The position numbers were made by a program, and so were the translations under genes. A DNA stretch of 64,000 nucleotides from Cenococcum geophilum (Eukaryota), in assembly GCA_050273025.1 (NCBI GenBank), contig CP158635.1, positions 17,546,001 to 17,610,000 on the forward strand. Direction: 5' to 3'. Under the pieces are notes generated by a model. It was given only the letters and a program-made list of their open reading frames with translations. It was not told the origin of the DNA and made no database searches. Below are positions 1-36,180 of the stretch, piece by piece; the stretch's first letter is position 1; each line of letters starts with the position of its first letter.

Positions 1-413
1 ATTAGTTAAAGGTACATCTTCCCTATTTATTACTTCTACTTCTACTTACCTTTCTAGGCCTCTAAATATAATTTAAATAAGTGGAGAGCTCTTATAGAGT
101 TAGGTTTTACTACTAAGAATCGTTCTATAAGGCGCTAGCAAACTACTTTACCTACAAATGATACTAAGAATGCCTTCCTACCTTGCGGCCAGAACAGCTA
201 AGATACCCCTAAAATAGCTTAACGGTAGAAGACAATTAGGGCAATATAACGGGAGTACCACATTCTTAATTAGCGGGGTAAAGCTTACTCGCCTACTCCT
301 CCGCTATATACCATAGATAAAGCTCCGGATAGTAGAAGAGGCACTCTAAATAGCCTAAATACGTCTTTACCGGAACTAGCTTCTATACCTACTCTACCGC
401 TAATACCACCTTT

Positions 414-533
414 CTTACGGTAAGCTCCCTCGCGGTAAGCTCCCTTACGGTAAGCCCCTTTACGGCAAGTTCCCTTACGGCAAGCTCCTTTACGGTAAGC
501 TCCCTTACGGCAAGCTCCCTCGCGGTAAGCCCT
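414..533 (+). repeat. 15-bp tandem repeat, ~8 copies (consensus TT/TC-ACGG-TAAGCTCCC), probably a 5-aa repeat in the Helitron N-terminus
   Basis: Successive units ttacggtaagctccc / tcgcggtaagctccc / ttacggtaagcccct / ttacggcaagttccc ... Confidence 0.85.
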
Positions 534-3500
534 AACTAGGCTACACTATTACCCGTTTCGGCTGTTAATTAGGAGCGAATTAAGAAGTTTAGGAGTATAC
601 TATAGGCTAAATATATAGAGACGTGCAGTCGTTGTAAGGAGTAGTGGTTTTAAATGGCCTAGCTATGGAGGAAAACAATATAGGTGTATATAAAGCCTGC
701 GTTAAGGACGCTAATAGCCTTAAGAATCTAACCTTTTTTCCCCTATTTAGTAAAAGTAATAGGCTTAATCTAGGGCCTATTCCTAGCTTTCTACCTATAC
801 TTACCGCGGTAGAGGAGCTTCTAATCGCGTGCGTATACATTTATCTACAAGTCGTGCGTATACGCGGCTAGCAACACTACTATACTGGCTACGTTTACTG
901 CTTTAGCTAGAATATACTAAAGACTTAGAGGTAGCTACTACGGCTACCTATTAAACTTAATATACTGGTCGTAAAGCCTATAGTAGTAGAGGGTAGCAAA
1001 TACCTAAGTTGGCGGTTTACCAAGTGGTATACTATAAGGCGCTCTACTATAGTATAGTAGCTTTACTTTCTAAAGGTCAATTATCCTAATTATTGCGACG
1101 TTAAAATATATAGCACCTAGCTTACTAGCTTACCTAAAAATAGCTCTATATTAGATTAGCTACCTTATATTAATAAGTTAGAGTCTAATTCTAGTAGCCT
1201 AATAGCTTACCCTACTACTTTTATATAATATCCTTCTACTATTAATCCTCTACCTACTAAGCTTAGTAGTAATATACTAGACAGCAAATTTAATAATAAT
1301 GTACTAGATATTTTAGTTCCTAATCTAGTGCCTAACCTTAATAAATTAGAGCTTTTAGGTCGCGAGGTTTAATACTAATAAGACCTATAAGCGGGCCTAG
1401 AGGTTTCTACTGTGCAATAAATACCTCTCTCTAAGCGATTAGCTAGTTTTATTATACGCGGCGCCTTTTCTACCCTATTTCCTTATAGTAAAGCAGATTT
1501 TAATATACTATAAAGCCGTACGGTTACCCTAGCTGCGTACGCTAAGTATATGCTTAAGTATTAGGACAGTCGGTTTAGCCACTACCCCTTATTTCGCTAC
1601 TATATGTTTAATCGGATTATAAAAGAGCAAGCCCTTAACGCTACCCACTTCCTTTATAGCTAATTAGATAAAAATAGCCTATTTTTAAATAAGCCTAGTA
1701 ATCTTATAAATGGTAGTAGGGGTAACTAGGTTCTAAATAAGATTATACGGTATATATAGAAGCTTAAGGGTACTAGGCCTTACTAGAAGTAGAAAAGAAA
1801 TAAGCTTATAGCTTATACTAAGAATATTAAGAGCGGGTCTCTATTCTTTACACTTAGCGCTACTAATCTATATTGGTATAATCTACACTCTTATATGCCT
1901 TGATTTAACGAATATAAGGCTACTAATAAGGCTTAGCGCTACCGGATTGCTTCTTAGAATCTTAATAATAACCCATATATTACTGCTTACTAGCTATATC
2001 GCCGCTTTAATCTATTTAGGAAGCACGTGCTTATAGGTCTATTTAATGGCACTAACTTTTAGTCCTAATATAAGTGGTAGATATAAGGTAGTGGCTATAT
2101 ATATATAGCTTCTTATGGAGTTTAACAGCCCTAGAGCCAGATCCGTTAGCTAGTGTATTAAGGGCGGCTTTTACTAAGTACTGGGCTACTTTTATATCTA
2201 TAGTAAATCCTAATTAATCTAGGCCTCCTAATCTTTGATATCCTTCTACTTTTAGCTATAAAGAACAGCTTAATACTAGTAAGCTTTTTACTGCCTACCC
2301 TAATTGATTTTAATAGCACTGCAATTACACCGAATCTTACTGCTTAAGATTAAAGAAAGGCTCTACTAGAGTAAAGTAGTGCCGCTTTTACTTTCCACGC
2401 TCTCTCCGTAATAAGGCCGCTGTATTAAAGGATTAAAATCCATATTACTAGACGTTCTATCTATAGTGTAATAATAAGCTTCTTAATAGTTATAATACAG
2501 CTATAATATTAGTGTGGATGGCGAATATTAATATATTACCCACTATAAGCATATTAGTAATAGTTAACTATATAAGCAAATATTGCAGCAAGAAAGAGAA
2601 GAAGTTAACTTCCTACTAGGAGCTACTCTAATTAGTATAGCCGTATACTAACAGCCTTTATACCTTTAGTTTAGTAGTAGCTAGGTTTATAAATAAGCTT
2701 ATTACTAAACGTAATTAGTTGGCACAGAAGGTATGCTATTTACTTTTTAATATTCCCCTTTACAAAGGCTCTAGGAATATAGTAACTTTAAATTACCCCT
2801 AGGAGGATAATTAAAGCGCTATATATAAGCTTAAGGATAGCTAATTAGGAGGGTATAGACTATCTAACTATAAGAAATATAAGCGCCGCCTAGATGGGGT
2901 AGAAGACGTTACTTTCTTTAATTTCCTACTCTATTTTAATTACTCTACTTATAAGCGTCGGCTAAGAGCAAAGCCTTAAGTTATATTATACTTTCCGCGA
3001 TATAAAGGCAATTCTTCCTATTTATAGTATTCTAAGTTCTACTATATAAAGCTTATTCTTTATTATCTATAAAGGGAGTATAAGAAAATAACTACTTATA
3101 CTAATGGATTTGGGGCCCCTAATTATATAGCTTCCTATTAGGCTTGCGTTAACTCTTATTAATACCCGCTTAACTACTATAACCAAAAACTAGATAAAGC
3201 TTATAAAACTACTAATAATATTAATAAGTTTAAGGGCGATTTTGTAGACGACTTAAAGCTATATTAGTCCTTTAAGGCCCTATATACCCGCGTTTAAAAT
3301 ACCAATAAAGTTAAAATTAAGGATCCTAATAGGCTTGGTAATAGGGAGCTTAATTATAACTACGACTAGAGCACGCATTAGGGTACATACCCGTAGCTTA
3401 ATAAGAGAACTTATTAGTAGAAAGTATGGCTACAGCCTCTACTATAGAGCCGCCTATCCTAAATAGCAACTCCATCCTCTTTATAACCAGGTTAGCGTTA

Positions 3501-4239
3501 TATCTATAATATTATAGTTAATTACTACAGGCAGATCTAAGTGGGCCTTAGCCCCCCTACTATAGATTAACGTTAATAGAGAGGCAGGAACCAGTAAATT
3601 ATATCTTATTGCTGTTTTGTCTACTACGCTCTATAATATAGCTATATCTAATAATAAGCCGTCGCTATTAGTTTAAGCTGCCCCTACTAAAGTAGCTGCC
3701 TTTAATATTAACGGTAAAACTACGTACAAATTATTAAGGTTACCAGTGAATCGCCCCTTTAAGGAATTACCTACTGCCAGTCTTACGCCTCTATAATAAG
3801 CTTTTAAGGATATTTACTATCTTATCCTTAATAAGAAATCTATAATCGGGCAAGTATATCTAGCCTAGATTAATCGCTACCTCTATTAGATCTACCCTAC
3901 GCGTAACAACAACTACTTTAGAGGCTTAAACACCTTGCTAGTAGGCGATTTCTATTAGCTTCCCCCTATAGGTCAGGCGGCCTTATATAGTAATCTATCT
4001 ACTAGGCCGTTAGAGCTCGCTAGCTATAGAAAGGGAGCCTATAAGGCGATTAACCGAACTACTATCCTAGATTAATTTATATAGTAGGGCGGTAATAACG
4101 CTAAGAGCTCTATATTTAGGACCGCCCTCGTAGAGCTACGTAGTAATTCTATAAGTAATTTAACCTAGAAGCTTTTTTTAACTAGGTATAAGCAGGGCCT
4201 ATCTACTAATAAGGTTGTAGGCTTTAATAACGCAATTCG

Positions 4240-4497
4240 TGTAAGGCAGTATTGCTAGGGTGTACGGTAGGGAGCAGGCAAGCCGAGCATGAGTCACATA
4301 GGGAGTCGATGGAAGAGGACGATATGGTAATGAGGGTAGGCAATAGCCTCGTACTGAGACGAACCGATGAGGAGGGAAGGGCTGCAAGCCCGAGGTGCTT
4401 ATAAGGAGGTGCCAAGGGCTAGCCGAAGGCTAGCCTTGGCGACCCCTAAGAGCCCCTAGGCGATGCAGCCGAGTAAGGGACCAAAAGTACCCTTACA
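4240..4497. mobile_element. Solo LTR (258 bp) inserted in the Helitron helicase
   Basis: TGTAAGG...CCTTACA termini; 5-bp TSD ATTCG (4235-4239, 4498-4502); near-identical copy at 54214-54474. Confidence 0.95.
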
Positions 4498-6300
4498 ATT
4501 CGGCTATATAGCACACGCGCTGCTATAGGTAAGTATAATACTATTCGGCTTCGCGATCTTTTACAGCCAGTGGTAGCTATTAAGTTAGTTAACACTAGTG
4601 TAGGTATGCGGAAAGTTACTCCTAATTAGTGCAATACTATAGAGAATCTAGCCCTATATATTAGCGCGAAAGTAATACTAATATAGAATATCTAGGTTAA
4701 ATTAGGCTTAGTAAATGGTACTACTAATATAGTTAAAGATATTATATAGAAGGGACACGCGGATATTAAAGAGGATCAGCCTTAGTTACTACTAGTTACG
4801 GTAGATAGGTATAATGGACTTACCCTATTTACTTGGCAGGATAGTAAGAAGGTCGTCCCTATATTTTCTATACTTTATAAGTAGGAGGGTATAAAAGGCT
4901 CTTGCTTATAGCGTTAATTTCTAATTACTTTAGCTTTTACTCTTACTATATATAAAAGCTAGGGCCTAATACTTAACTAGATAGTTCTAGATGTTAAGGA
5001 AAAGAATAAGACAGCTAGGCTAACCTATATAGCAATCTTACGAGTTAAGAAGCTTTTAGGGCTTATATTTAAACGTAGGTTTAATATAAAATAATTTTAA
5101 TTATCTATAAGTAAGACTAAAGAGGTATAATAAGAAGATTTTACATGGAGGCAGCAGTAACTACTTATAAACGACTTTTCCTAATTAGGAAATTATATAC
5201 TAGCTTAGAGGTAAGCAGAGAATACGGCATTCGTCTTAATTTCCTAACTTTTAAATAGCTTAACTACAAAATCTAATTTTCTAAATTTTAACCCCCCTAT
5301 CCATCCTACCTTCTTACCGCTTTTAAAGCTATTAGATATACATATAATAGTATATAAGGAGAATTAGCAGTACTACCGGATTAATATTACTACTATCTAT
5401 AGCGTTAATTAATTTTTAGAATTTTTATATTTTTTTTAAAGGGCGGAAATATCGCTTATATAAGAAGTTATATAACCTTTAAGAATACTTAGGACCGCAT
5501 ATTAGCAGCCACGACTTCTCTATACTACGGTTAAGATTTTATATATACTGTACCTAGAGCTACTTATAATAACTATTACTTATAGATCTACCAATTTACA
5601 AATAAAAATTAGACGTGGTTAGAGCTATTAGTAGGGGTTATTAATCGCGCTCCCTATAACAAAATTTTGGATTTTAGTAATCTAAACTAACAAATTAAAT
5701 TAAAAGTTTAGAACGTCTAAATAAGGTTCTACTAAGACGCTAAATAGACCCTAACCTAGACCCTTCCTAACCTGTTAAATTCTAAAAATAACAACCTCTA
5801 TTAAATTAAAAATTAACCTTATCCTTAATAAGCCATCCAATTAGATTTAATAGTTCTTTATTATTTAAGACACAGCTAAAATTAATAAGGTATAGTAGTA
5901 TATTAACCCATTTAGGGGGAAAGACGATCTTCTAAAGCTAGAACTACTAAGTCGGCCTACACTAAAGGATATACTACCTACGGCTATATTAATAGCAAGG
6001 CTGGACCTAAACCAGCTTACTACCTATAAATAGCTCTACGCCAAATATAAGGACGATTTACGCGTACACTAGAAGCAAAAATAGGCTATAAACGATATTA
6101 ATAACTATATCATTTACACTACATTGGTAGCCTACCTTTTACTTATTAACAGCCTTAGTGGTTAGTTACATTAAATATTTAAGGCGTCTCTACTACTATA
6201 GTAGCCACTGCAGTAATAGAGACACCCTATATTTTAGTAAGTAATTAAGCCCATCTTATACGAGAATCTCGTGCTATTAGTACTTACCAAATCACGTACT

Positions 6301-32146: not shown

Positions 32147-32367
32147 CGCCATCTCCACAAGGGTGTGGCCGGAGCGGGTCGGCCGCCCTCCCTGCTAGCG
32201 CACCATGCAGAACATTTAAGTGCTAATTGATTTATTAAAGCATCGGCTAGTGATTAGCCTGATGAAGTAACTACAATGCCGATGCCGGCGCCTTAAGCAT
32301 ATTAACATTCAGACTTTTGCTTCTCATATTGTAGAAAGATAGTCAACCTATTAACGAAGAAACAAAT

Positions 32368-35300
32368 TTATAAAAGCTTCCCAGTACGGCACTCCATTGA
32401 TACATAGCGTGCCTCAACTTTCCCAACTCCCAATCTTTCATATCCATTCCCTAGTGATATTTCTCGGACGATCAATATGAAATAAGTCTTCTTAGGATCC
32501 TCTTTCTCGTCTATGCACATCCCAACGACAACACATTGTCGGCAATCAATATTAACTGTCATACCCTCCGCCATATCGGCTACTACATCCACCCATAAAG
32601 ATCCCACTCTCCCTGAATCAGTGAATATGGCACGTTCTTTCCCTTCTCGTTCTACTTGACAGTTTCGAAACTCCCTAACTTTGACGATTATTGCATGTTG
32701 ATCGGTGTTAAATCGAAGATCTTTAGAGACCGGAACCATGAGCCTCGAGTTCGACAGGAAATCGATTCCTCCAGAATATGCCATCCAAGACCAGGATGGC
32801 ACCTTTCGATCTTCGTAAGCAATCCGATCCGTATTCTCCTCGTCAGACCGCTTCCACAAGAGGAGTCTAGAAAAGAAGCAATTGAAGACTCCGTATCTAC
32901 ATTCCGTCGTCAAGACTCTTTCTATGCGCTTGACCAAGCCAGAGATCGCAGCATTCCTATCGCAATCCTTGCTAAGACCACATTGTGAATACCTCTTGAA
33001 AAGGAATTATATGAAGTTAACCGTGGGATCGTAGCCTGACATCCTAAGGCTTTCAGGGAATTGGGGATCAAGGATAACACCTTCCTTCCCTGGTGGGCTG
33101 GAATACATAATCGTAATGTTAGCATAACAACTTTACCAAGACCTTTAACTTCAGCCTTACCAATGCAGTCTTGTGAAGTTTTCGCAACGTATACCTTCCC
33201 CACACTCCCAATACGTCTGGTTCGCAGAAAAATGTATCGTTCGGCGGGACAGCACTCGCTCTTGAAGTACCCAAGCTCTCTGGTTAAGGGGACCTGCATC
33301 CACATCGTTGCTGAAGTCGTCTATGCCATCGCAGACATAAAGCCGTCTGCCTGAAACATCTTGGACCTGAATATACTGAGAATTTGGGTTCCGCTCAAGG
33401 AAGCCATCTTTGCAACTAGTCGCCGAACTCGCGGCAATGGTGCAGTAGGCGGAGGCAAAGACCTTTTCCATGAGCCCAGCTTCATTTTCCCAATCCTTCG
33501 AGTCTTTTTGAATTATGCAGATAGAATCGATCCAGAGGTATTCCTTCCCGAGTTGCTGAGTCACTTCAATAGCATCCTGAAATGTCTTCGGTAGATCATC
33601 GGAGCTGAATCCTTCCAATCGATGAGGATAGTTATCCTTAGTGGTGCAGAACTGCTTCTCTTCCTCGTCCGTCAGAGTACCCCAGCGGTGCGAGAGCGCA
33701 ATATAGTCCAGTCTATTATTCTGCTCCCGTCCATTAGGTCGCTCCCGAAGTTCCAATGTTTTGGTACCAGGACCTCCAACAAAGATGACCCTCGTCGGAC
33801 AGTATGGCTTTCGCTGATTGCATTTTAGACTCCTGTCGCACTTTCGAAGCCATTCGCGCAGTAATTTGAAGTATGGAGAGCTGCTAGTAGAGGGACGAGC
33901 GATTTTATGTAAAGTAGGAGGTCCAATTTGAATATCGTTATTATTATCTGCCGATGATTCTTTTGCCAACGTGAAATAGTGAGCGATGTTGCTATATTGC
34001 CAAAAGGGGGTAAAGACGAACCTGGATCGGCACAGAGCCGAAGTATGCGTGGCCCACCTCCAGCAACTGCCAGCGCTGAATTATATCTGACTATATGAAC
34101 CGGCTGATGGCTATCACTGTGATAACGGGGTACCACATCAAGAAGCAGTTTGCAGAGAGGACAATTATTTGCCAGAGTCCGTAATTCAAAGGCAATAATA
34201 GAGCGGTTAAAAGAGAGAAGTTGTGTGCAATCTGAACACAATCGAGCGGAGATGGGATTTCTAGAAGGCGTATTCCAGGGCTCTTTGCTGAAAACGTCCG
34301 CAGCGAATCGATTATCGACAAGATACCCCCAAGGCGTCTAATTAAATACCTAAGTCAATATAATATTTAAGGGAGCTTAAATATTCAAAAACAAACACCC
34401 ACTGCCTACACCGACAAACAGACCACGGTCAGCAGCTATCACATCCCATCCATCTTAGAGAGGCCGACTTACCTCCTACACCAACAAACAGACCACGGTC
34501 AGCAGTTATCACATCTCATCCGTCTCAGAGAGGTCAATTTACACGCTACACCAACAAACAGACCACGGTCAGCAGTTATTACATCTCATCCATCTCAGAG
34601 AGGCCAACTTACCTCCTACACCAACAAACAGACCACGGTCAGTAGTTATCATATCTTATCCATCTCAGAGAGGTCGACTTACACGCTACACCAATAAACA
34701 GACTATAGTCAGCAGTTATCACATCTCATCCATCTCAGAGAAGTCAACTTACTGCCTACACCAATGAACAGACCACGGTTAGCAGTTATCACATCTTATC
34801 CATCTCAGAGAGGTCAACTTACCCACTACACCAACAAACAGACCACGGTCAGCAGTTATCACATCTTATCCACCTCAGAGTGGTTAACTTACCCACTACA
34901 CCAATAAACAGACCACGGTCAGCAGTTATCACATCTCATCCATCTCAGAGGGGTTAACTTACCTCCTACACCAACAAATAGACTACGGTCAGTAGTTATC
35001 ACATCTTATCCATCTTAGAGAGGTTAACTTACACGCTACATTAATAAACAGACTATGGTTAGTAGTTATCACATCTTATCCATTTCAGAGAGGTCAATTT
35101 ACACGCTACATTGATAAACAGACTATGGTCAGCAGTTATCACATCTCATCCATTTTAGAGAGGTTGGTTTACCCACTACACCAACAAACAGGCCATAGTT
35201 AGCAGTTATTACATCTTATTCATCTTAGGGGGGTCGGTTTATACGCTACACCAATAAACAACCTACAATTAGTGGTTATTACATCTTATCTATCTTAAAG

Positions 35301-35888
35301 AGGTTAACTTACCCACTACACCAATGAATAGACTATGGTCAGCAGTTATCACATCTTATCCATCTTAGAGAAGTCAATTTACTACCTATACCAATAAATA
35401 GACTATAGTTAGTAGTTATTACATTTTATCTATCTTAAAGAGATTAACTTATACGCTACATTAACAAATAGACTATAGTTAGTAGTTATTACATCTTATC
35501 TATCTTAAAGAGGTTAACTTACCTTCTACACTAATAAACAGACTATGGTTAGCAGTTATTATATCTTATCTATTTTAAAGAGGTCGACTTACCTCCTATA
35601 TTAATAGATAGACTATAGTTAGTAGTTATTACATTTTATTTATTTTAAAGAGGTTAATTTACCTGCTATATTAATAAATAAACTACAATTAGCAGCTATT
35701 GTTTATTTATATAGTATAATATACCTTCTAGATTTATTAGTATAGTTAAAGAATTACACTTATAAGGCTAAACTATATACATCCTATATCTTTATTAGAT
35801 TAAAATGCTAAACTTTTAATTTATAATAATAACCAACTATAAAGTTATTATAAATCCAAGAAAGGATTTATTTACCTAAAAATGCCAT
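32368..35888 (-). pseudogene. HET-domain (heterokaryon incompatibility-like) gene with N-terminal microexon array; one premature stop
   Basis: Large exons 34337-34022, 33959-33161 and 33097-32368 join in frame via GT..AG introns (34021-33960, 33160-33098). HET motifs PTRVI, YIALSHRWG, LPKTFQDAI, YLWIDSICIIQ, DWENEAGLMEKVFASAYCTIAA, LNQRAWVLQERVLSRRTIHF, PSWSW, YERLGVG; N-terminal CSDC and CPLCKLL. In-frame TAA at 33009-33007. The start at 35888 is tentative. Confidence 0.88.
34403..35700 (-). repeat. Tandem array of 70-bp units = 67-nt intron + 3-nt exon (19 microexons, 18 repeat introns)
   Basis: Minus-strand unit GTAAGTTGACCTCTCTGAGATGGATGAGATGTGATAACTGCTGACCGTGGTCTGTTTGTTGGTGTAG + NNN; exact 70-bp periodicity, with triplets at 34403+70n up to 35663. 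Confidence 0.92.
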
Positions 35889-36180
35889 TTTTAAGGTTTT
35901 TATTATACTATAACATTACTATTAGGGAACTGTTTTAATTTATTATATGGGGTAAGGTCTAGCTATTAATAAAGATAGTAATAGCTAAGGGACGCTTGCC
36001 GCGGCACTGTAAAACATAGACGGTCGCTTCGCTGCACTAAGGCCGCCAATTAGGGGTAGGCTTTACGCGAAAGGATTAAGCTGAGAAGCCGTCTTTAGTA
36101 TTATCTTCTATTAAGAATCGAGCTTCTAGTGGCTTAAGGAGGCTAGTTTACTAGCCTCTTTAATTTTGTATTATATATAA

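Follow-up and report, generated by a model that had tools for sequence, protein, structure and literature searches.

A tandem array of intron-like units with codon-sized spacers upstream of a decaying HET gene in Cenococcum geophilum

INTRODUCTION

A HET-family gene of the fungus Cenococcum geophilum raises the question of whether the end of a protein can be assembled from exons of a single codon each. The gene lies on the minus strand of a 64 000-nt stretch of DNA, here called the window (assembly GCA_050273025.1, contig CP158635.1, positions 17,546,001 to 17,610,000), and is preceded by a tandem array of 70-nt units, each resembling a short intron followed by a 3-nt spacer. An earlier note, made from the sequence alone, read the spacers as microexons encoding the N-terminus of the HET protein. 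The architecture is real and present at two loci, and it is unusual enough to merit experimental study. The locus in the window is today a transcribed, decaying pseudogene relic and not a working microexon gene. As to its history, the explanation tentatively favoured here is that the array is the relic, decayed by repeat-induced point mutation (RIP), of an exon–intron minisatellite, the spacers of which may once have been single-codon exons of an N-terminal extension.

RESULTS AND DISCUSSION

Architecture of the array

Tandem Repeats Finder recognizes one tandem array at 34405–35663, with a period of 70, 18.0 copies, 83 % matches, 0 % indels and a score of 1284. Cut in register on the minus strand, the region 34403–35662 resolves into 18 full units, each made up of a 67-nt intron-like element (GTAAGT..CTGAC/CTAAC..TAG) and a hypervariable 3-nt spacer. 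The 5' end of the unit reads GTAAGT in 11 cases, GTAAAT in four, and GTAAAC, ATAAGT and ATAAAC in one each, so that GT is present in 16/18. The branch motif is CTGAC in 10 units, CTAAC in seven and CTAAT in one (CTRAC in 17/18), and its A lies 23 nt from the 3' end. TAG closes the element in all 18 units, and in all 18 exactly 3 nt follow it. U2-type introns of filamentous fungi, which are about 50–70 nt long, start with GTRNGT and end in YAG, with a CTRAC branch site about 15–25 nt upstream of that end; the array units, at 67 nt, carry these signals. The unit anatomy proposed in the earlier note is therefore upheld in its 67 + 3 nt layout and its invariable TAG, and needs amending for the two broken donors and the single unit lacking CTRAC.

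At the upstream end of the array, a half unit with the spacer CAG (35664–35700, minus strand, model positions 33–69) was detected by nhmmer with a profile of the unit (E=0.003). Beyond this and the 18 full units, the profile found no match in the 64-kb window, the next best having E=0.27. The array had been placed at 34338–35727; it exists, and the outer limit falls in degenerate AT-rich DNA that the profile does not recognize. Upstream of the half unit, on the minus strand of 35701–35800, two AT-rich stretches of 53 and 59 nt also show the pattern GTATAT..CTAAT..TAG with 3 nt after it (AAG and CAG); the profile does not recognize these either. These may be older, RIP-eroded units, or may occur by chance in AT-rich DNA.

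At the gene-proximal end, the last triplet, GCA (34405–34403), is followed by a unique intron-like stretch of 65 nt (34402–34338, minus strand; GTGGGT..TTGAC..TTAATTAG), which ends in an acceptor-like TAG and is also present in the second copy of the locus described below. The stop-to-stop open reading frame (ORF) TPWGYLVDNRF... starts at 34337, directly after this TAG, and the junction claimed previously is confirmed in both the sequence and the ORF. The 65-nt stretch has three in-frame stops in 21 codons, compared with one in the 614 codons of the HET gene, and so was not coding in the recent past. Re-reading of the sequence returned the 19 triplets, and their translation, exactly as claimed. 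It is also true that they contain no stop codon, although this is uninformative, as (61/64)^19 = 0.40 would be expected by chance.

Judged from the sequence, chance cannot account for intron signals this specific, for spacers of exactly 3 nt and for variation that stops sharply at AG and GT, and for this reason the units are probably copies of a real intron. The idea that the array is a structured RNA or a host of small nucleolar RNAs was rejected: Rfam 15 covariance models gave 0 matches at E<=1 on either strand of 34300–35800, and no stable fold was found, since four units that were folded did no better than shuffled sequence (z = +0.09 to +1.45). Elsewhere in the window, at 414–530, is a 15-bp tandem repeat (CTTACGGTAAGCTCC, 7.8 copies) in which CTTAC/GTAAG forms a palindrome; it showed no connection with the 70-nt array.

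A second copy of the locus

When metagenome contigs were searched with the first conserved HET exon (34022–34337), by two-sequence alignment, a single locus, L001, was returned. There the 70-nt unit is repeated 84.6 times (positions 19–5929) and is followed by the 65-nt unique stretch and then by a copy of the HET gene. As this array extends to the end of the sequence examined, its count is a lower bound, and the two copies of the locus hold 18.5 units (window) and at least 85 (L001). This large difference in unit number supports the gain or loss of units envisaged earlier. In L001, 78 of 83 intervals between units measure 70 nt, and 83 of 84 units have a 3-nt spacer, which makes 101 of 102 when the window is included. 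Among the 77 regular L001 units, GT is found in 65, CTRAC in 74 and TAG in all 77. The donor of the 65-nt stretch is GTGGGT in the window and GTAAGT in L001. On the strand of the L001 HET copy, no open frame of 60 aa or more remains.

Comparison of the window with L001 over 2252 nt reveals 272 C>T/G>A changes, 37 in the reverse direction and 17 transversions (0.75 %), with homology ceasing at 32159, downstream of the HET gene. The C>T/G>A changes lie mainly in CpA/TpG contexts (CA 91, TG 81). The gene island, of about 45 % GC, is flanked by blocks of 30–33 % GC. An excess of C>T/G>A at CpA/TpG together with AT-rich flanks is characteristic of RIP-mutated duplicates, and on these sequence grounds the two loci are best regarded as recent duplicates that have both undergone RIP, which was heavy in L001 and light in the window. 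Within the window array, RIP-like changes climb from seven in the unit nearest the gene to 28 in the farthest. Both broken donors (ATAAGT and ATAAAC) come after a CGT spacer, that is, in the TpG context preferred by RIP. Because the two copies differ by so few transversions in their unique part, the locus would provide a dated example of tandem intron multiplication.

Variation in the spacers and in the introns

Within the window units, 65 of the 67 intron columns are invariant or vary by transitions only, whereas the three spacer columns have an entropy of 1.5–1.8 bits and include transversions. When the 95 regular units are pooled (77 from L001 and 18 from the window), five transversion and 672 transition differences are counted over 6365 intron sites, the latter being of RIP type, while in the spacer columns A, C, G and T are nearly even. 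The contrast between intron and spacer variation is far beyond chance.

Seven purine/pyrimidine classes of spacer can be distinguished: GCA (21), GAG (13), CGC/CGT (12), a YYY kind (10), and GGC, CCA and TGG (nine each). Four of the seven occur in the window. From its composition, each class looks like one G/C-rich founder with its C>T/G>A derivatives. A few additional founders may be hidden by the heavy RIP in L001, and for ATA, which makes up 14 of the 21 members of its class, the founder may have been ACA instead of GCA. The number of kinds is estimated at about 7–10 overall, with one codon per kind. This is unlike ongoing diversification, and the earlier suggestion of a peptide varying residue by residue is not supported. 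The order of the classes in L001 is near random, with 11 same-class neighbours compared with 12.5 expected and no five-unit word repeated; the sole excess is at lag 4 (20 compared with 12.2, P=0.014, uncorrected).

As the pre-RIP introns were essentially identical and each of the three spacer positions varies, ordinary mutation following the copying of the units is not the source of the spacer differences. One possibility is that selection kept the spacers varied while recombination homogenized the introns, a pattern reported for the WD repeats of HET-linked allorecognition genes (PMC1805685); the other is that the spacers already differed when the units arose, through a process that cannot yet be named. 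None of the readings considered below explains well why the spacer alphabet is small, with one codon per kind, why its order is near random, or why a start codon is missing.

The HET gene downstream of the array

The gene belongs to the HET family, an assignment that is solid. PF06985 matches the minus strand at 33157–33957 over its full length (profile positions 1–146 of 146; 107.2 bits compared with a cut-off of 22.5; E=1.2e-30), and the best relative, a 581-aa protein of Endocarpon pusillum that carries PF06985 only, shares 73 % identity over the HET exon. Pfam searches of the three exon translations found HET only, with no match in the first exon and no nucleotide-binding domain or protein repeat. 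The first conserved exon (34022–34337; TPWGYLVDNRF..LCSDC..CPLC..RLCADP) aligns to the N-terminal W.Y..DN.FA region of homologues. It is followed on the minus strand by a 62-nt intron (33960–34021; GTTCGT..CTCAC..AAAAG), predicted from a change of frame between homology blocks, with no RNA contig listed across it, and by the exon that carries the HET domain (33161–33959). An in-frame, canonical 63-nt intron (33098–33160; GTAAGG..GCTAAC..CCAG) fits a 21-codon gap in the homologue alignments. The C-terminal exon (32368–33097), recognized by homology and covered by an RNA contig at 32319–33105, has its own stop codon at 32368–32370. Within it, at 33009–33007, an in-frame TAA stands where three homologues have Q; this is a change from CAA to TAA, of the CpA-to-TpA type, and is also present in L001.

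As it stands, the gene is not a complete ORF with a start codon, since it has the in-frame TAA and no ATG. No in-frame ATG occurs in the exon 34337–34022, and the first M lies deep inside the HET domain. In 31 homologues with the W.Y..DN.F motif, the N-terminus is a median of 13 residues upstream (range 4–150), and in every homologue sequence inspected this N-terminal stretch runs unbroken into the motif. In the window, the frame ends abruptly two codons before the W, at the acceptor-like TAG. A complete HET protein would therefore need upstream exons, as the first conserved exon has no ATG and opens right at an acceptor-like TAG. The full frame is possible only if the 65-nt stretch and every unit are spliced out, because the acceptor TAG of each unspliced unit is an in-frame stop.

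With the first exon as query, a profile-free search picked up 37 proteins at E<=0.001, mostly short ORF calls from fungal DNA. Among longer proteins, none of 154 candidates reached E<=0.001, and among proteins of near length only P0121 was found. On this basis no database protein joins the predicted microexon peptide to the first exon, fragments of <57 aa being outside the reach of these searches. In the Halenospora varia homologue P0008, residues 12–15 read RERE and end three residues before the conserved W, the same offset as that of the RERE read from the last spacers (34612–34403; AREREATPW compared with YRERESQNW); this is one case among the 31 homologues, picked after the fact. Tryptophan-rich N-termini of homologues were considered as support for translation of the spacers and rejected, W making up 2.8 % of 569 extension residues and 2.3 % overall.

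Transcription of the locus

RNA runs X8, X9 and X21 and DNA run X5 were compared with the locus. The RNA results are subject to two caveats, namely that low-depth assembled contigs drop rare forms and that the aligner is unable to place 3-nt exons. Thirteen RNA or probable-RNA runs contain 0.33–0.46 of the sampled words of 32300–35800, about equal to the value of about 0.55 expected for exons alone. The contigs of X8 and X9 are identical in length, depth and position, although the organism label and the study differ between the two runs; probably one data set was deposited twice, and the pair counts as one observation. The X5 DNA contigs agree with the window over 32218–34496, 34711–35427 and 35608–36150, with one difference.

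A 1219-nt RNA contig, of depth 13.5, covers 32319–33105 and 33161–33592 and skips 55 nt, which indicates that the HET gene is transcribed and processed. This skip (33106–33160) is the sole RNA joint seen in the gene. It has the ends GT..TG, stops 8 nt short of the canonical 63-nt intron and shifts the frame, and the joined form is absent from X5. It represents either aberrant use of a 3' splice site in a decaying gene or an unseen variant within the skipped part.

Just downstream of the gene, at 32157–32200, is a GC-rich element of about 45 nt with a mean RNA depth of about 1700 in its bin. Its depth is very high in the DNA contigs too, each of the four runs has loose ends to its left and right, and the homology between the window and L001 ends at this element. 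It either is a dispersed repeat or belongs to an abundant transcript; a search for a tRNA near it found none.

Origin and decay of the array

The favoured explanation can be set out as a series of proposed steps. In a recent ancestor, the array would have lain inside the 5' part of the HET transcript, its units excised as introns and its 3-nt spacers retained as single-codon exons, which together formed an N-terminal extension spliced in phase 0 to TPWGY.... Before RIP, the introns would all have been alike and the spacers of few kinds (GAG, CGC/CGT, TGG, GCA, GGC, CCA and YYY). Unequal recombination between the identical introns could then have changed the number and order of the units quickly. 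Array and gene would subsequently have been duplicated, which would have exposed both copies to RIP. The damage itself is evident: the second copy is wrecked, and in the window the distal units are degraded and two donors broken. The TAA common to both copies may stem from the same RIP episode.

Parts of such a history have precedents. In Coprinopsis cinerea, 27 single 3-nt exons are spliced, in 26 genes (PMC12230235), and HET-linked WD-repeat genes combine highly conserved units, few hypervariable codons, shuffling by recombination and RIP (PMC1805685). Of the microexon reading as first put forward, the intron anatomy, the codon-sized hypervariable spacers and an exon that needs upstream sequence have held, and the splice junctions, the start codon and the intact gene have not been found. 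A stronger proposal, which we consider rather unlikely, is that undamaged copies, in a recent ancestor and perhaps in paralogues or other strains, splice tens of single-codon exons into the HET N-terminus, with residues added, removed and reordered by recombination. If this were true, skipping of any subset of units would keep the frame, so that one gene could give rise to a large family of N-terminal peptides, and the array would serve recognition or regulation as a module for which no counterpart is known in any organism.

Several observations weigh against the spacers having been exons. A 203-nt RNA contig, of depth 2.8, covers 34171–34373 unbroken across the proposed junction at 34337/34338; it extends 36 nt beyond the acceptor, and at least this much of the 3' end of the 65-nt stretch was therefore retained. 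Sequence of the proximal array is itself present in RNA contigs, with depths of 12.1 and 8.5 in 34352–34498, 5.1 and 3.6 in 34499–34645 and 8.7 and 10.1 in 34793–34939, and zero depth in 34646–34792 and throughout the bins covering 34940 to 36115. DNA run X5 has a single-copy depth of 6.4, which these array bins exceed 2.5- to 11.5-fold; as the DNA depth is likewise inflated, the RNA values correspond to about the level of the neighbouring exon. Retention of the array in transcripts had been named beforehand as an outcome telling against microexons, and this is what the contigs, all of low depth, contain. No joint within the array is among the RNA joints listed for the X8/X9 contigs, and no loose end at 34337 is among the 24 of 80 loose ends listed. 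Raw RNA run X21 gave no coverage of the HET gene, and is uninformative on splicing. Transcription thus reaches the proximal array, without splicing seen at the proposed acceptor; a minor spliced form may exist.

The sequence raises further objections. No start codon or upstream exon was found 5' of the array, there is no ATG among the spacers, and the 5' flank is AT-rich DNA of RIP type. The TAA common to the window and L001 may mean that the gene was dead before the duplication. Neither tandem duplication nor codon-by-codon selection predicts so few spacer kinds in near-random order without block repeats, and how identical introns came to flank different triplets lacks an explanation. No such array is known at the homologues compared, apart from L001, the only one for which the DNA was inspected.

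The array may instead never have contained exons. It could be a non-coding, intron-derived minisatellite of 70-nt units that occupies the 5' leader or promoter of the HET gene, or one that a rearrangement carried beside a 5'-truncated gene, a possibility that is doubtful but has to be taken seriously. The intron signals would then have been inherited from a progenitor unit, and the diversity of the spacers would come from an unknown junction-forming process. The unspliced RNA contigs at about the level of the adjacent exon, a chain with neither an ATG nor an upstream exon, and the position of the gene island between RIP-type AT-rich blocks all fit this account, as do the joining of both known arrays to dead genes and their fivefold difference in size, of the kind seen in minisatellites. 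A neutral unit should, however, vary evenly along its length, and the array combines five transversions in 6365 intron sites with near-uniform base use in three columns, and keeps a 3-nt spacer in 101 of 102 units. Moreover, the HET frame, with one stop in 614 codons, opens at an acceptor-like TAG without a start, so that a gene functional until recently must have needed coding sequence upstream; nor can a mechanism be named that would set identical 67-mers beside a small alphabet of 3-mers in random order. The identity of the introns and the differences between the sequences that separate them are what insertion into pre-existing sequence would give, and serial gain of a mobile, introner-like 67-nt intron, copied through reverse splicing or otherwise into successive codon boundaries of a short pre-existing exon, followed by growth through recombination, would account for them. 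This appears improbable. Introner-like elements have been reported to fold stably, and the array units do not; the 64-kb window holds no further copy; we know of nothing that makes introns insert every 3 nt; and an 85-codon exon built of about seven codons would be an unnatural coding sequence. Near-identical, multiplying introner-like elements have been described in the Dothideomycetes, which favours such an origin, whereas the same source puts within-gene tandem duplication at <1 % of recent single intron gains in Zymoseptoria (PMC4457414), which does not.

The remaining two explanations would have the array encode protein at present. That the window holds a working HET gene, with the N-terminus QEKRVWRWRREWWAREREA assembled from 19 microexons, agrees with the anatomy described, with transcription and the one downstream joint in RNA, and with the RERE of P0008 at the same distance from the conserved W. 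It is nevertheless very improbable, and the TAA at 33009–33007 and the broken donors bring it close to refutation. Two of 18 donors read ATAAGT or ATAAAC, there is no start codon, the RNA contig over the junction is unspliced and the one joint seen shifts the frame; as for RERE, it was chosen after the fact from 31 homologues, and charged residues before the W are common in the family. The claim that the spacers form a working HET N-terminus is accordingly hardly tenable. The opposite strand was also considered. The proximal array at 34364–34957 contains plus-strand ORFs of 69–108 aa in all three frames, those of 93, 108 and 102 aa among them, because the un-RIPped unit is stop-free on that strand. 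A repeat protein encoded there in all three frames, with a period of 210 nt (70 aa), is scarcely credible. No Pfam match exceeded the cut-off (the best had E=0.0075 and 16.4 bits, compared with 25), a stop-free 70-nt unit has an estimated chance of roughly 3–8 %, the minus-strand intron signals are far more specific, and the ORFs break wherever RIP acted.

A RIP-decayed relic of an exon–intron minisatellite is therefore retained as the tentative preference. If its spacers were ever exons, this would be the most extreme exon–intron fragmentation known to us, with one codon per exon and tens in a row. Genes of allorecognition or cell death would also gain a previously undescribed means of variation, and the locus would offer a natural test bed for the behaviour of a fungal spliceosome on consecutive 3-nt exons. 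Even if they were never exons, identical 67-mers with a small 3-mer alphabet in near-random order and exact GT/AG limits need a mechanism beyond current models of satellites and of intron gain.

Comparison with known systems

The literature searched, with subscription journals outside it, contains no description of tandem introns separated by 3-nt exons, and the statement that the architecture is undescribed holds to that extent. In the human interferon-induced gene 6-16, a minisatellite of splice donors provides in-frame splice sites, and the protein changes by whole codons. That minisatellite repeats the donor alone, in a 12-nt unit at an exon/intron border, whereas the array described here repeats whole introns.

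Other systems share single features with the array. Introner-like elements (PMC4457414, PMC8469720) are near-identical canonical introns in many copies that have multiplied recently, but they are dispersed in unrelated genes; the array runs head to tail at one locus, with 3-nt spacing and no stable fold. Gain of introns by tandem genomic duplication (PMC4974935) also adds introns within one gene by duplication at the DNA level. It creates one new intron from exon sequence, with identical flanks, whereas the flanks in the array, that is, the spacers, differ. In recursive splicing in Drosophila (bioRxiv 10.1101/006163, PMC5126111), an acceptor again stands beside a donor and stepwise removal rebuilds the 5' splice site. 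Those ratchet points are zero-length exons in long introns and leave nothing behind; the array would proceed in steps of 70 nt and leave 3 nt at each. The 1–3-nt microexons of Coprinopsis cinerea include 3-nt exons between short introns, but are isolated in ordinary genes, whereas the array would have 19 to 85 in succession between identical introns (PMC12230235).

The closest likeness is to the HNWD genes het-d and het-e of Podospora anserina (PMC1805685, PMC2873952, PMC4986451), which are also HET-linked and have near-identical units with few hypervariable codons. Unit number is variable in these genes too, and recombination reshuffles the units, RIP acts on the repeats and pseudogene copies occur (PMC1805685). 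An HNWD unit covers 42 codons within an unbroken exon and lies C-terminally in a protein that has a nucleotide-binding domain; a unit of the present array consists of an intron and one codon, the array lies at the N-terminus, and HET is the only domain found. The nucleotide-binding domain and the C-terminal WD, ANK or TPR repeats of HNWD and other NLR genes are absent, and conserved units with hypervariable positions and variable number are found at the DNA level alone. By analogy, the array appears to work most like the hypervariable HET/NLR repeat arrays, yet is not a member of that family.

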